Source: a bacterium
GTDB taxonomy: Bacteria; UBA8248
Direction of reading: 5' to 3'
NCBI GenBank assembly: GCA_965202625.1
Contig: CBDBBI010000010.1
Span: 416,001-480,000 of the forward strand
Length of the DNA: 64,000 nucleotides
The notes under the pieces are model-generated. The model saw only the letters and a list, made by a program, of their open reading frames with translations, was not told the DNA's origin and searched no databases. Both the position numbers and the translations under genes were made by a program. This document shows, piece after piece, positions 24,660 through 31,497 of the stretch (position 1 is the stretch's first letter; each line of letters begins with the position of its first letter).

Positions 24660-24689
24660 TTGTCCCGACGGTTCGGGTCATAATATAAT
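24660..24689 (+). promoter_or_regulatory. Putative sigma70 promoter for the partner-helicase module
   Basis: TTGTCC-18 nt-TATAAT about 50 nt upstream of ATG 24741. Confidence 0.5.
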
Positions 24690-24740: not shown

Positions 24741-27131
24741 ATGACAGTCGAGAACAGCAAGATTGTTGAAGCGATAAAGGATTGGGCGCGTCGCTTATGG
24801 CGTCGAATAACGAGCTCAACTCCCGAGGAAGAGGATGACTCGCGCAATCCGCCAGATGGAACTGGTGAACCCGAATCACAAAATGCGCCAACAAGACGCG
24901 AACCGGAGCGAGAACCACCAGACGCGCGTTCCGGCGATATCGATCCTATAGATGATACCGATCCTGTAATGACTCGCCCCGAACCTGAACCCCTCGTTTG
25001 CGATGCGGGTGATGGGCAAGACGGCCTGCCTCGACCACCCGACCCACCACCGCCTGAGACTTCTGAGCCTACAGGCAATGCCCCAACGGGGGAGGGTGAA
25101 GAATCAACGGAACCTACGCTAAAGGCCTCAAGCGAGATTGGGGGGGAGGGAAAACGCAATGGGACTTCGACGAAAAATCCCCAGAAGATATCAGAAGATA
25201 ACAACGAAATGGATCGCAAATTCACGCCTCGCCCAGAGATCATTTGCCGAAATCTCCGCGGGCATTGGAAAGTGTTTCTGTCCGTAGATGACGAATGCGG
25301 CGTCAAGGAGGTGCGGCACAGCGGCGGCGAAACTTTGCCCGTGTCGGACGGCGAATATCCCCTCCCGTCCTTAGCCGGAAGCTTGTCTGTCGTCCTTGAG
25401 GACGATGGGCATAGTGAATTGATAGTTCCTTTGTTTGACGGCAAACCCCTCATCTTCAAGTTGCAGGAGGATTGGACCGGCGACGGACACAAGGTCGAAC
25501 GCATCACGAAGGGGTACTTCGTCGTCATCGCGCCGAACACCTGGACGCGCACGGGGCGCATTCGCGTGGAGTCGCAAGAGTGCGTAGATCCAAACTTCAA
25601 AGCGCACTATTTCTTTCAGCAACCAGGTGAAGCAGAGGCGGACGTGGGCGGCTTTAAGGAATACTCCGGGCCGTTGTTCGCCAATTCTTCCCTTACGCTC
25701 AAGGGCGAGCGCGTTTTTGACGACTCTGATGAAGGGGAGCTGTTCATAGGCGCCGTTCCAGAGTTGACTCCCTCGCAGGAAATCGCCTGGGTAAGGGTTG
25801 GCGAAGAACGGACGGGCGGCTGGAAGGGCGATAGCTACAGGCCGGACGAGAAAACTCTCGCTGACGTGCTGAACGACCGGCAAGGGCGGTTTTATGTCCG
25901 CGTTTACGGCAACGAGTCGAAGAAGATGGTGGATAGCGATCAGTTTCGCTATCTACAAAGTCTCAAAGAGATTCGTGTAAACGATGAGCTATATACGAAA
26001 GACGTGATTCTTGCGCCGCCTCCTGCAGGGTATCCTCCGACAGAGGTGTGCTTTGTCGGCGTCGATGGCGCGCCCATTCGCCCCATCTTGCCGTCCGAAG
26101 CAGCGCACGTGAAAGTGCTAGGGAGCGATCTCATCGTGGATCCGGTTCCGTGCAGCGACAACATATCGTGCGTGCTGGAGTCCGACACCGGTCGCGTCGA
26201 TATCGTCTTGAATCTGCCGCGCATCTGGTGGCGGATGGCGCGAGGCGGTGAGGAAGCCGATGAATGGCGAGATACCCCCCTGACGATGACGCGACAGGAA
26301 TATCGTGCGAATGCGGAGGCGGAAGCGGCAATTCATTTGCGTCTGCCGCGAAAAATCAAGTCGGTTCTCGTGGGTTTCGGGGATGAGGGGGATCGATCAT
26401 ACCGCCAGAAAAAGACGGGAGACGACATCGCGATTCCACTGATGAATTTCGCCGATTATACGCAGATTGACGAGCGGCTGAAACAGGACGCCTTGTTTAA
26501 CGCCCGATATGGCGAGGTAGATTGGACGCTTGTCAGGGTTTTTGCCGACCCCGCGCCGAGGATCGTCTCCTTCGAGTCGGAACCAGGGAAGATTGCGGTC
26601 GGAGGGACGGCGACGTTGCGTTGGGCGACCAAGAACGCGGAGGCTTGCGGCGTTCAGATCGATTCCGGAATCGGGGCGGTCGAACCTAACGGGAGTCGTG
26701 AGGTTGCGCCCTTGAAGAACACAACCTACACGCTGAGGTTGACGGCTCCCTATGTGGATAAGGTGATGGGAACTGTTCATGTGACCGTCAGCGTGCAGGA
26801 GTCGGGCACGACACCACCTGTCGTCACAACGGTGGACTATATGGCCGCGTCAACGACTTATGACGAAATGTTTGAAGAGGCGCTTGATGTCGTCAAGAAT
26901 CGCTTTTTACTCTCGGTGCTGCTCGCCAAGCGGGTGGCACAACTGCGGCAGGGGGCGGAGCCCCTGGTCGCCGCGCAGCCGAGGGACACGCAGCCGAGGG
27001 AGACGCATGAGCAGATCGTGTTCCGGGAAATTATCGAGGAGAAGCTGGAGTGGCGAAAGACCGCCTCGGCGGCTGACTTTTCCGACATGGACCACGGGTT
27101 TGCGGACGAGGGGTTCGACGACGGAGAGTAG
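24741..27131 (+). CDS. 796-aa helicase-associated protein: disordered N-terminus, beta-rich core, Ig-like domain and C-terminal RNA polymerase omega (RpoZ) domain
   Basis: Pro/Glu-rich residues ~25-155; Ig/PKD-like segment (PRIVSFESEP...ATLRW...TTYTL, 26550-26795); residues 701-796 contain ALDVVKNRFLLSVLLAKRVAQLRQGAEPLV...IVFREIIEEKL. Confidence 0.8.
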   Translation: MTVENSKIVEAIKDWARRLWRRITSSTPEEEDDSRNPPDGTGEPESQNAPTRREPEREPPDARSGDIDPIDDTDPVMTRPEPEPLVCDAGDGQDGLPRPPDPPPPETSEPTGNAPTGEGEESTEPTLKASSEIGGEGKRNGTSTKNPQKISEDNNEMDRKFTPRPEIICRNLRGHWKVFLSVDDECGVKEVRHSGGETLPVSDGEYPLPSLAGSLSVVLEDDGHSELIVPLFDGKPLIFKLQEDWTGDGHKVERITKGYFVVIAPNTWTRTGRIRVESQECVDPNFKAHYFFQQPGEAEADVGGFKEYSGPLFANSSLTLKGERVFDDSDEGELFIGAVPELTPSQEIAWVRVGEERTGGWKGDSYRPDEKTLADVLNDRQGRFYVRVYGNESKKMVDSDQFRYLQSLKEIRVNDELYTKDVILAPPPAGYPPTEVCFVGVDGAPIRPILPSEAAHVKVLGSDLIVDPVPCSDNISCVLESDTGRVDIVLNLPRIWWRMARGGEEADEWRDTPLTMTRQEYRANAEAEAAIHLRLPRKIKSVLVGFGDEGDRSYRQKKTGDDIAIPLMNFADYTQIDERLKQDALFNARYGEVDWTLVRVFADPAPRIVSFESEPGKIAVGGTATLRWATKNAEACGVQIDSGIGAVEPNGSREVAPLKNTTYTLRLTAPYVDKVMGTVHVTVSVQESGTTPPVVTTVDYMAASTTYDEMFEEALDVVKNRFLLSVLLAKRVAQLRQGAEPLVAAQPRDTQPRETHEQIVFREIIEEKLEWRKTASAADFSDMDHGFADEGFDDGE
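26841..27131 (+). other. rpoZ: RpoZ (RNA polymerase omega) domain, in frame within the 796-aa ORF and with its own ATG
   Basis: 96-aa segment from ATG 26841 with the omega signature NRF.L....AKR..QL..GAEPLV and A/F-REI...K, followed by an acidic tail. Confidence 0.8.
26974..27007 (+). repeat. 15-bp tandem duplication inside the omega domain
   Basis: CGCAGCCGAGGGACA / CGCAGCCGAGGGAGA / CGCA, encoding QPRDT-QPRET. Confidence 0.85.
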
Positions 27132-27162
27132 CCTCTCCCCCCTCCGTGCGCGTCAGTTGACG

Positions 27163-27234
27163 CCCATCGACAAACGCCGTCGCAGTGCACACCAGCGCAA
27201 CATAGAGATGCTTGGGAGGTTGATGGATGCCTGA
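27163..27234 (+). pseudogene. Orphan C-terminal coding remnant resembling ribosomal protein L13e
   Basis: Reads PIDKRRRSAHQRNIEMLGRLMDA*, similar to the archaeal L13e motif IPVDKRRRS.H..N.E.L. Its TGA overlaps the helicase ATG (ATGCCTGA). Confidence 0.55.
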
Positions 27235-30200
27235 CGCCAACGACATGCAAACCATACAAACCTGGCCCGAAAAAATTCGACAACGTTACGAGAACTATTT
27301 GATAACCTCCTTTTTTTTTTCAAAGAGCCAAAATTGCGGGAATCGTTCCAGGCGGCTCTTCAAGAAGAGGGGAATCTTTTGAAAGGCCCATGCACCGAAA
27401 CGGACCGGGGCTTCAAGACCGGCTCAAGCGCGAGGGCATTGGCAAAGGGATGTTTTCCGGACGAGAGCGAAGGTATTCTCCCTGCACTGATCGATGCCCC
27501 CTTGTATTCGCATCAGGAAGGAGCCATTCGCGCCGCGCATATCGACGCCCGGAACGTCGTCGTCGCCACTGGTACCGCCAGCGGCAAAACGGAGAGTTTT
27601 CTCTACCCGATCCTTTTCGAGTTGTATCGCCAGCATCTCTTTGGGGAACTCGAAGAGCCAGGCGTGCGTGCGATGATCCTGTATCCAATGAATGCGCTCG
27701 CCAACGATCAGCGCGAGCGTCTGGGCAAAATCTGCAAGCATTTGCGCGATGCAAATTCGGCGTTCGCGCCGACGTTCGGACAATACATTGGGCAGACGCC
27801 CGAATCCGCTACGGACCGTTGGCGCAATGCCGCCGAGCGGGCGAAAGAACGCCTGCCCGGAGAACTCGTATTCCGCGACGAAATGCGAAAGAAGCCGCCC
27901 CATATTTTGCTGACGAACTACTCCATGCTGGAATATCTGCTTATTCGCCCCGACGACAGCCCTTTGTTCGACGATGGCCGCGGCGCGCGCTGGCAATTTA
28001 TCGTGCTTGACGAGGCGCACCAGTATCGCGGCGCCAAAGGCATGGAGATGGGTATGCTCCTCCGGCGCCTCAAGCAGCGGCTGCGCGACGGAGGACGGCA
28101 AGGTTCGTTCCGCTGCATCGCCACCAGCGCGACCATTTCCTCTGGCGAAAGCGATAAAGACAGGCGAGTTGTCGCCGAATTCGCGCAGGAGCTGTTCGGA
28201 GAACCCTTCCAGTCGGCTGGCGTTATTTTTGGCGATACACGGCCGGAAGCCACTGATTGTCCTCCACGCCGCTATCATGCCTTTTTGCGCGCTCTTGAAG
28301 GGGCGTTTCTCGTTCACAGGGACGGCGCGGATGCTGTCGTGCTCAATCGGAAGAGCGAAACTGAGAACGGGTCAAACGCGAAGCCGTTGGAAATCGCCCT
28401 GTGCCGTGAATGCGGCCAGTATTACTACGTTGGTCAGGAGCGAGACGGAAATCTGGGAGAAGCCGTCCGAGACCCCAGTCAACCCGACTTTGGCGTGGAC
28501 TATTACCTGGCAGCGAAGGATGGAGACAAGTGGCTGTGCAGGCTCTGCGGCGCGCTTTCAAAATCCACGTCGAGTTGTGATTGCGGCCCGGAGGTTCGCG
28601 TGAAGGTGAAGAAGTGCAAGAGTCACAAAGGGCACCCCGACCAACTGAAGGAATGCGAGACCTGCGGTTATCAACGCGGCGGCATCGGCGATCCGGTGCA
28701 GGAGATCGTGCATGGCTCCGACGGGCCCAACGCCGTCATCGCTACCGCCCTGCACGAATTGCTGCCGGAAGACAAACGCAAGGTGCTTGCCTTCGCCGAC
28801 AGCCGGCAAGAGGCAGCGTTCTTTGCCTGGTATGCCGAGGACTCCTACGAGAAGCTGCGCGACCGCAACCTCATGTTGCGGGCGATCAAGGCGGGAAAAG
28901 TCGTCCCGGAAGGCCTGTCTATCGACGATCTCCGAAACCGGCTGCACAAAGAGTGGGAGCAGGCTGGTCTGTTCAGGGAGACGGATTCGTCGGAAGGGCG
29001 AGACCGACGGGTGCTGACGTCAATTCTGCGCGAGGCGCTGACGGACGAAAGGCGGCTGTCCTTGAGTGGTGTTGGCCTGGTCAGGTGGTTCGTCAGGATT
29101 CCCGACAAGTTGCATTTGCCGGAAGCCATGCGAGAACCGCCATGGAAATTCACGAATGCCGAGGCGCGGCATCTGATCGGGTATCTCCTGGACGAGTTGC
29201 GCCTGCGCCGCGCCATGGACTTGCCGAAAGGTGCCGCAACGCCTGCATGGGGCGACGTATTGCCTCAACGGCCGCAGCAGGCTTACGGCAGCGGGTCGCC
29301 GGGCAAGCGACCGAACGTCTCTGAATGGGGCAGCCCTCAATCCGCAGTCATCCGACATTTCCTTCACCGGTTGCTTGATGACAGCGGCCTGTCTGAAGAA
29401 GGGAAGCAATCGGCGTCGAGGAAACTCATGAAGGACGTGTGGAAAAAGCTACGGAGTTATTGCGGCGAAACCATCCTTTCGTGCGGACGTGTGAACGGTA
29501 CGTTTCGGCTTGATCCGCGCTGGCTGCGGCTCAAGCCGGTTGCGCCTGGCGAAATCTGGGAGTGCGACACCTGCGCGACCTTGAGCGCTCACTACGTTCG
29601 CGCCGTCTGCCCCCGGAATCGTTGTCCCGGAACCCTGGTGCCCGCCGACGGAAGGCGCCTCGAGAAAAACCACTATCGCATCCTCTACGAAAGCGATGCT
29701 TTTCCTCCCGCTCTGAGGGCGGAGGAGCACACTGCACAGATCGACAGCGACGCGGCGCGCCAAAGGCAGAACGAGTTCAAGAATGGCAAGATCCATCTTC
29801 TCAGCTCTTCCACTACGTTTGAAGTCGGCGTCGATTTGGGGGATCTGAAAGTCGTGTTTCTCCGCAACGTGCCGCCGGAGCCGTTCAACTACACCCAGCG
29901 CGTCGGACGCGCGGGGCGAAGAGAGACTGGCTTGGCGCTGACCTACTGCCGCCGCAATCCACACGACTTATATTACTACGAAGATCCGGGGCGCATAATT
30001 GACGGCGCGGTGCATCCGCCGCGCCTGCGGATGAAGAACGAGAAAATCATCCTGCGGCACCTTGTCGCCACGGCCCTCTCCGCGTTCTTCAGGAAAAACG
30101 TTAGAGCGCGCTTCACCAAAGTAGAAGAATTTGTGAAAGACTGGTCGAGCCCCCGCGCCGCGTCCGATCTCAAGGAGTTTTGCGAGCGCAACAGCGAGTT

Positions 30201-31497
30201 GACGGATTCACTCCGCCAAATCGTTCCGAAGGACATGCGCGAACGAGCGGGGCTCAAGGATGACGCCTGGATTGAGAACGTCGCGGGACCAAAGAGTCGG
30301 CTCGCCAAGGCGGAGGCGGAAGTATGCGCAGATTACAAAGAGATGTCGAAGACTAAGGATACTCTCATCAAGGAGCAGCCTTCCAGGTGGACTGACAAAG
30401 TCAAACAACTGCAAAAACGTATGAAAACCATCGCCGGCGAACAAACCTTGAATTTCCTCTCACGCAAGGCCGTCATACCGAAATACGGGTTTCCGGTCGA
30501 CGTCGTCGAACTCGATACTCGGCCCGAATACGGCAACCGGACGGGCGTCACGCTCCAGAGAGATTTGTCCCAGGCTATCGCTGAATACGCGCCGGGCGGG
30601 AAGGTGGTGGCCAACAAACAAGAGTGGGAATCATGCGGCGTGAAGGTGGTGCCCGGAAAGGCATGGCCAGTCCGACGTTATCAATACGATGACGCCCGCA
30701 ATTTTGCGCAATGGAATGAAGGTGATCCATCCAGCTCGCACAAGCGCCTGGGGAATATGCAAGCTTATGGGAAATACTTGATCCCGGAGTTTGGTTTCGT
30801 AACGCCGTTGTTCAAGAAGCCCGAGAAGCCGAGCCGGCGAGCGCAACGATTGTACACAACCCGGCCGTTCTTTGGAGGCTTCGCTAACGACCCTCGTCTC
30901 GAAACTAAGACAATCCTCGGCGTCCAAATCACTAAAGCGGTGCCTGGTACCCTGGTCATATTATGCGAGGGCAAGAACAGGGAAGGCTTCTATATCTGCC
31001 GTTCGTGCGGCGCCCACATGACAGCGAAGAAAGCCGAGCACAAATCCCCCTCGGGTTCCGAATGTCGAGGCACCTTGGAACGCTTCTCGCTTGGGCACGA
31101 ACTGGTCACGGATGTGGTGCGCTTGCAGTTTCCGGGACTGCGTGACGAATGGAAGGCCTATTCCGTCGCCTACGCTGTCCTGCTCGGCGCGGCGAAGGCG
31201 CTGGACGTTCCGGATATGGACCTGAACGTGACGATTACGGGCGGCGGCGATTCGGATGCGTCCGCGATCGTGCTCTACGACAACGTGCCTGGCGGAGCCG
31301 GACTGGTGGAGCAACTGGAGCGGGAGAGCGTCTTCAGAGAGACGCTTCAAAACGCGCGCGCGCGGGTGGAGGGCAACTGTGGCTGCGACGCAAGCTGTTA
31401 CGGCTGCCTGCGCAGCTACCGCAACCAATTCGCGCATCCGCATCTGGATCGAGAGCAAGCGTTGCAAGCGTTGGAATCCCAACTCGCGCACGCATGA
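27227..31497 (+). CDS. Large SF2 DEAH-box helicase with Zn-binding motifs and C-terminal DUF1998 (Druantia DruE-like); frameshifted at T10 (27311-27320)
   Basis: PLYSHQ, TGTASGKTESF, YPMNALANDQ, TNYSMLE, VLDEAH, TSAT, FADSRQ, STTFEVGVD, QRVGRAGR; several CxxC pairs; LYDNVPGGAG...CGCDASCYGCLRSYRNQ. GGAGGT plus ATG 27227 gives MPDANDMQTIQTWPEKIRQRYENYLITSFFF, which joins the 27334 frame only with T8 or T11. Confidence 0.9.

Follow-up and report, generated by a model that had tools for sequence, protein, structure and literature searches.

A near-identical copy of rpoZ fused to the partner gene of a Druantia-like helicase, and tail exchange in the partner family

Introduction

Druantia type III is the closest described relative of the system reported here, a two-gene operon on a stretch of 64,000 nucleotides (nt) of a bacterial genome (contig CBDBBI010000010.1, assembly GCA_965202625.1), called the window throughout. 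The first gene of this operon, the partner gene, ends in a complete copy of rpoZ, the gene of the omega subunit of RNA polymerase, while the second encodes a helicase of the DruE type. In Druantia type III, the protein paired with DruE is DruH. According to the respective reports, DruH consists of a globular N-domain, immunoglobulin-like (Ig-like) subdomains and a C-terminal domain and binds single-stranded DNA (10.64898/2026.05.12.722862), has been considered a possible scaffold (10.64898/2026.05.13.724758), and is regarded as the likely infection sensor and a member of the YjiT family (10.64898/2026.05.12.724681). The III-B subtype is described as having a compact DruE that lacks the PLD nuclease.

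The locus in the window shares several of these features. As in Druantia type III, the partner gene lies directly upstream of a YprA-family DruE with an MrfA Zn-binding domain, and the helicase is devoid of a PLD nuclease, in line with the account of III-B. According to a structure model, the partner is also rich in Ig-like domains, as the solved DruH is. In contrast to DruH, partner proteins of this kind have approximately 600 to 800 residues, carry a tail resembling ribosomal protein L13e, and show no match to DruH or YjiT. Thus, two hallmarks of type III, the DruE helicase and the adjacent gene pair, are found here, and two others, a YjiT-family DruH partner and an intact helicase frame, are not, the latter due to a run of ten T in this strain. 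By its type of helicase and the order of its genes, the pair corresponds to III-B, with a partner that is not a detectable homologue of DruH. Literature searches returned no paper on this partner family, the defence role of which is putative. They also returned no omega or ribosomal-protein modules in Druantia partners, including in the accessible text of PMC12458937, although supplementary tables may list such modules.

Omega and the beta-prime subunit are a textbook pair, and proteins fused to the N-terminus of omega work in two-hybrid systems. Engineered RpoZ fusions recruit RNA polymerase in bacterial hybrid and CRISPR-activator systems, as reported in PMC11724954. Like these constructs, the gene in the window joins a protein to RpoZ, with binding to RNA polymerase only predicted in our case; unlike them, it is not artificial but natural, and it resides inside a defence operon. 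Compared with stand-alone RpoZ, all 96 residues are identical and the Pfam Rpb6 domain is present, whereas the omega of the window is covalently joined to the C-terminal end of an Ig-array protein of 700 residues and lies outside the usual neighbourhood of a dnaJ-like gene, a 181-residue gene and rpoZ.

The partner gene ends in a complete omega subunit

The open reading frame (ORF) 24741..27131 on the forward strand is uninterrupted and encodes 796 amino acids. Its last 96 codons (26841-27131) are those of rpoZ, with residue 701 encoded by ATG 26841 and the stop codon TAG at 27129-27131. An earlier reading of the window, made from the sequence alone and referred to as the sequence-only reading, had claimed a complete omega at the end of the partner, starting at its own ATG and in frame, with no stop between the partner core and omega. 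All of this holds. The search with the RNA_pol_Rpb6/omega family that it suggested gives a match above the cut-off of 26 bits (PF01192), both for the omega segment alone (37.4 bits, E = 2.5e-9) and for the whole protein (32.9 bits). The segment stays below the equivalog cut-offs of NCBIfam (NF001579, 48.4 versus 58; TIGR00690, 15.3 versus 23.6), which reflects the lineage and not the fusion, because the canonical copy described below has the same protein sequence. The features of the locus are as follows.

24660..24689, forward: promoter-like site (TTGTCC, 18 nt, TATAAT), approximately 50 nt upstream of the partner start
24741..25232, forward: partner residues 1-164, beginning with a short segment conserved at the N-terminus, then a Pro/Glu-rich linker of low complexity
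25233..26810, forward: partner core, residues 165 to approximately 690, all-beta array of Ig-like/beta-sandwich domains
26811..26840, forward: linker that connects the Ig-like domain to the inserted omega, with the left junction at approximately 26836
26841..27131, forward: complete rpoZ copy, residues 701-796, with its own ATG and TAG
27148..27234, forward: untranslated remnant of an L13e-like tail (28 codons, model positions 39-66 of 66), out of the partner frame
27227..27310, forward: true 5' end of the helicase gene (ATG 27227), the N-terminal peptide of which matches the homologues in loci L004 and L015
27311..27320, forward: T10 homopolymer by which the helicase is put out of frame; with T8 the frame would be restored
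27334..31497, forward: main ORF of the compact DruE-like (YprA-family) helicase, with DEAD, Helicase_C and MrfA Zn-binding domains (Pfam)

The promoter-like site agrees with the consensus at 10 of 12 positions, a weak indication, as the region holds three such sites compared with 1.3 +/- 1.2 in shuffled sequence. In the family consensus, the N-terminus of the partner starts with a W...L motif, and the remainder of this part varies in length among homologues. Within rpoZ itself, a 15-nt tandem duplication (window 26974-27003) forms two near-identical units that encode a repeated QPR-D/E-T stretch; it is common to both copies of the gene (same place in L002).

Origin and age of the omega copy

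The genome (10 contigs, 3.09 Mb) contains exactly two Rpb6 matches, both with 37.8 bits. The second one lies approximately 733 kb away on the same contig and is a stand-alone ORF of 96 codons, whose product is 100% identical to residues 701-796 of the fusion. At the nucleotide level, 287 of 291 positions agree, and the four differences are all synonymous transitions in third codon positions. The similarity begins at the CTAT directly before the ATG (approximately 5 nt upstream) and fades approximately 6 to 9 nt after the stop.

The stand-alone rpoZ is found 3' of a dnaJ-like gene and a gene for 181 amino acids, an order that recurs in all ten same-genus loci examined. Since it occupies this genus-conserved position, it is the canonical copy and the one in the window is the derived copy. 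Omegas of other species of the genus are only 75-83% identical, from which it follows that the copying took place within the present species. With four differences in 291 nt and a tail remnant that is still well preserved (see below), the insertion is very recent. This agrees well with the sequence-only reading, which had named a near-identical stand-alone rpoZ elsewhere in the genome as the sign of a recent capture. It had also pointed out that spoT has no rpoZ directly upstream, and indeed the RelA/SpoT homologue at 193-2520 (TIGR00691, 770 bits) has no neighbouring rpoZ; in this genus, the gene follows the dnaJ-like and 181-residue genes instead.

Contig support for the junctions

Both junctions of the insert are present in contigs of the public run X1. 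The left-junction contig (1677 nt, depth 5.28) leads from the Ig-like domain of the partner to 30 nt inside the omega block. The right-junction contig (1679 nt, depth 3.99) covers 27095 to 27700, begins 43 nt inside the omega end and carries the copy-specific base at 27125. The flanks of the canonical rpoZ form separate contigs of similar depth (5.21 and 5.67). The interior of omega is collapsed, as expected for a repeat of 300 nt in a k=31 graph, and no single listed contig spans the block. As the encoded protein does not differ between the copies, the left junction is sufficient to establish the in-frame fusion. The contigs of X1 exclude a scaffolding chimera; they are not an independent confirmation, as X1 may be the assembly's own sample.

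Two runs of another study, X3 and X4, are labelled sponge metagenome, and neither covers the insertion junctions. The partner contig of X4 stops at 26842 without a loose end, its canonical rpoZ contig is unbroken, and 27138-27180 is uncovered; in X3, 26754-26850 and 27092-27295 are uncovered. Near-identical sequence occurs in runs X4, X6 and X9, which carry the sponge metagenome label, and many related loci also derive from metagenome-assembled genomes (MAGs). The partner family may thus be common in communities of the sponge-metagenome type.

Insertion site and remnant of the replaced tail

Most homologues of the partner end in a basic tail of approximately 66 residues with a GKGFS...D-K/R-RRRS motif, close to the threshold of the Pfam family Ribosomal_L13e. 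A hidden Markov model (HMM) built from 103 such tails was run on 1964 six-frame pieces of the window. It yields one significant match, located 3' of the omega stop at 27148-27231 (35.9 bits, E = 4.3e-10, model positions 39-66); the next best has an E-value of 0.73. This remnant ends in a TGA that overlaps the helicase ATG 27227, which is also how the two genes are arranged in intact relatives, with the partner stop overlapping the helicase start. The rpoZ copy has thus replaced the first 38 or so positions of the tail, and the stop codon it brought along has cut the protein short.

A search of the flanks for a transposon-type signature found no target-site duplication and no terminal repeats at the omega insert, and no direct or inverted repeat stood out there. 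In a terminator scan, no terminator-like site was found between the omega stop and the helicase start, and the overall counts were not above those in shuffled sequence.

The helicase gene and its homopolymer

The sequence-only reading had placed the partner gene before a helicase of a defence family. This is confirmed by the domains listed above and by the PADLOC matches to DruE1 (E = 1.9e-156) and DruE3 (E = 2.9e-148); a Pfam domain search detected no PLD nuclease. The gene differs between samples at 27311, where run X1 has T10 and runs X3 and X4 have T8, i.e., 2 nt fewer. This difference could be phase variation, early decay or a strain polymorphism. Run X4 furthermore lacks 9 nt at window 27245-27253, which are three codons of the helicase N-terminus. 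If these 9 nt are missing and the run is T8, the distance to the partner remnant comes to 89 nt, as in most relatives.

The partner family

An AlphaFold2 model of residues 165-796 has a mean predicted local distance difference test score (pLDDT) of 85.6, with values above 90 over model residues 1-520, and a predicted template modelling (TM) score of 0.74. It shows an all-beta array of Ig-like domains up to approximately residue 684, and the last of these domains (approximately 608-690) is conserved across the family. The alignment has no omega rows, so the omega part of the model has low pLDDT and is uninformative on the position of omega. A Foldseek comparison of the model with the PDB returned generic multi-Ig matches only (TM < 0.2) and no DruH entry. 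Against PADLOC, the partner matches no family at E <= 1, DruH models included, and it has no Pfam YjiT domain.

Of 8000 candidates scored in a search with the partner core (residues 165-700), 278 are homologues at E <= 1e-3, and the 120 best of these are 39-56% identical. An exhaustive profile search gave 16023 matches at E <= 1e-3 and 1606 at E <= 1e-30; these totals are upper bounds on the family size, as some matches are giant multi-Ig proteins. Thirty partner loci were found in MAGs of a species-representative genome collection, which are taxonomically widespread: Thermodesulfobacteriota, Limisphaerales, Latescibacterota, Binatia, Vicinamibacteraceae, Thermoanaerobaculia, Rhodothermales, Gamma- and Alphaproteobacteria, SAR202/Dehalococcoidia, Gemmatimonadota and Spirochaetia. 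A DruE-like helicase follows the partner directly on the same strand in 29 of the 30 loci and in L004, and the 30th locus lies at a contig edge. The helicases adjoining partner homologues are 61-77% identical to that of the window.

L004 (1309-3291, genome G007) stems from the only other genome of the genus, among those searched, that has the system. Its partner is 43% identical, has an L13e-like tail below the threshold, and its stop overlaps the helicase start. Probably, this system is a separate acquisition.

Exchange of the tail across the family

The L13e-like tail is kept in 211 of 250 homologues (108 of the 120 listed and 103 of 130 further representatives from the profile search), and those without it include fragments. 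Several others carry a different protein at the same site. Ribosomal protein S17 is present over the full model in P0070 (104.9 bits) and L034 (99.6 bits), both domains of S5 are found in P0107 and P0250, and S6 is found in P0106 (30.1 bits), with several similar tails below the threshold. In P0103, NusB (full model, 96.6 bits) occupies the tail site and is followed by an L13e-like tail. Other homologues have zinc-ribbon-like and winged-helix-like tails. At the thresholds used, no Pfam match was obtained for the tails of L028, L032, L033, L035, L039, P0014, P0150, P0157, P0170, P0198 and P0200, and only sub-threshold matches for those of L038, L040, P0195 and P0241. By this pattern, the tail site is a recurrent point of module exchange in the partner family.

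Traces of the exchange are visible in the sequence behind the new tails. Five loci with replaced tails and longer gaps before the helicase were examined, and all five show the degenerate end of an old tail just before the helicase start (L033, 7392-7564; L034, 8025-8195; L038, 7887-8091; L039, 7878-8145; L040, 7953-8083). Such remnants may be kept as carriers of the ribosome-binding site of the helicase. In four proteins and two loci, inserts split the tail at model positions of approximately 32-41, which is close to position 39, where the remnant in the window starts.

The S17 module of L034 is 41% identical to the resident S17 of its genome and 45% to the S17 of P0070, with Pfam scores of 100.7 bits for the fused and 85.8 bits for the resident protein. 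By this comparison, the donor is not the present host. As the module has diverged and still matches the full model next to an intact helicase, such modules can persist and move with the system. Long-term maintenance of captured modules thus seems possible.

Evaluation of the proposed explanation

Our proposal starts from what is observed, namely the fusion, the origin and age of the copy, its site and the pattern across the family. A copy of rpoZ, comprising the ORF with approximately 5 nt upstream and 6 to 9 nt downstream, was inserted very recently into the 3' part of the partner gene, such that the Ig-array partner now ends in a full omega subunit. The C-terminal module would be that part of a sensor or scaffold partner which engages the gene-expression machinery or nucleic acid. 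Omega would dock the partner on beta-prime of RNA polymerase or, alternatively, take the place of the polymerase as the target of phage factors directed against it, and the helicase would thereby be coupled to events at the transcription machinery. Binding of the fusion to beta-prime, and with it a role as tether or decoy, which the sequence-only reading had brought up, is what we infer from sequence; the presence of S17, S5, S6-like and NusB modules at the same site in homologues lends this idea indirect support. The reading as a whole, a recent self-capture of rpoZ at an exchange site with omega as dock or bait, is in our judgement evenly balanced.

Several observations weigh against it. The fusion is a singleton: with residues 697-796 as the query, no other was found among the proteins of 437-1393 amino acids in a collection of 5.8 billion proteins, where 188 word-sharing candidates were obtained and none scored, in a search that requires shared 5-residue words and misses diverged fusions. 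The partner core is present in only one of 40 other genomes searched, and that copy has no omega. The insertion removed half of a conserved tail, and the partner stop is no longer coupled to the helicase start. In this strain, the helicase carries a frameshift, as the first 28 or so codons from ATG 27227 are off the main frame, and judged by its sequence the locus may be inactive. Taken together, a young singleton with its normal tail destroyed and a frameshifted helicase weakens the idea of a tether or decoy. The pattern of modules is not uniform either. Most of those identified bind RNA and omega does not, so that omega would be a loss of function if the job of the tail is nucleic-acid binding; and P0204 carries a MacB-like periplasmic domain at the tail site, which is not part of the expression machinery.

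Nor do the synonymous differences speak for a function of the fused copy. An argument for selection from four synonymous changes out of four (P of approximately 0.013 for neutral transitions) was dropped in view of run X7, a metatranscriptome. At 27005 and 27083, its canonical rpoZ contig has the bases of the fused copy, and at 27125 it does not differ. At least three of the four differences thus also occur as alleles of the canonical gene, at most one (26909) is assignable to the fused copy, and purifying selection on the latter is not evidenced. The fusion is too young for selection to show.

The strongest rival sees the insertion as an accident, neutral or damaging, in a locus under decay: a stray rpoZ would have arrived by illegitimate recombination, ruined the functional tail of the partner and come to lie in frame by chance. 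Omega would then be of no use, and the system would be on its way to being lost. We consider it a plausible explanation, though one held with less than even confidence. It agrees well with an event that is very young and unique, with the loss of tail positions 1-38, with a remainder out of frame and a partner stop that no longer overlaps the helicase start. The helicase, broken at T10 here and carrying T8 in two other samples, fits as well, and neither a target-site duplication nor terminal repeats suggest an ordered mechanism. The prior of an in-frame landing is only 1 in 3. On the other hand, in other lineages tails replaced by host proteins, with their own stop and a tail remnant behind, coexist with intact helicases. 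The captured modules are strongly biased to proteins of the ribosome and of transcription, which is not random unless capture favours highly expressed genes, and a change in homopolymer length is reversible and need not mean decay. Between a functional module and such an accident, the scales are about level.

A more far-reaching version of the bait idea draws on plants. In plant nucleotide-binding leucine-rich repeat (NLR) receptors with integrated decoys, copies of host proteins occupy a fixed position in an immune protein, differ by lineage and turn over rapidly. The partner family resembles them in having different host proteins at one fixed site (S17, S5, S6, NusB and omega), and the omega of the window is identical to that of its host. 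The kingdom and the protein family differ, and a parallel in effectors, targets and activation would be one of concept only. By this analogy, the family would be a bacterial counterpart of the integrated-decoy receptors, an Ig-array sensor that repeatedly takes up copies of small ribosomal and transcription proteins of its host, with the five modules as baits for phage factors that seize the ribosome and transcription apparatus; in the window, such a capture would be seen on the time scale of a single species. We regard this extension as unlikely, and it is offered tentatively.

The remaining explanations have little to commend them. The segment might mainly be a second, independently translated rpoZ starting at ATG 26841, with the fusion being incidental. 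The ATG is kept, a GGTGG motif can be read 5 nt upstream of it, and the protein is identical to the canonical omega. But no stop precedes the segment, so any ribosome translating the partner will produce the fusion, and with the canonical rpoZ intact at its conserved site there is no apparent need for a backup; we therefore find this improbable. Slightly more doubtful still is an old fusion that is kept near-identical by gene conversion with the canonical rpoZ. Conversion would yield near-identity between paralogues 733 kb apart on one contig, but the fusion is absent from the relatives searched, the identity reaches no more than a few nt past the ends of the ORF, and the remnant behind omega is far better preserved than those behind older replacements, e.g., in L034. 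Least probable of all is a chimeric join of two loci through the repeat: the copies do form a near-identical repeat of 300 nt that no single listed contig spans, and the junctions are not seen in X4, but X1 has both partner-side junction contigs at a depth like that of the canonical flanks, the right one with its copy-specific base, and the left junction puts omega in frame behind the partner whatever the phasing of the interior.

Significance

Near-identity to the resident rpoZ makes the locus a rare dated snapshot of domain capture. Across the family, L13e-like, S17, S5, S6-like, NusB and omega tails form a set of natural tail swaps that can be compared side by side. Should the omega insertion be a mere accident, it would still have to be explained mechanistically why small, highly expressed genes are captured repeatedly at one site. 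With functional modules, on the other hand, we would have a natural bacterial defence system that recruits copies of the core-machinery proteins of its host, and thereby a direct handle on infection sensing by Druantia-like systems, which is still debated for DruH.

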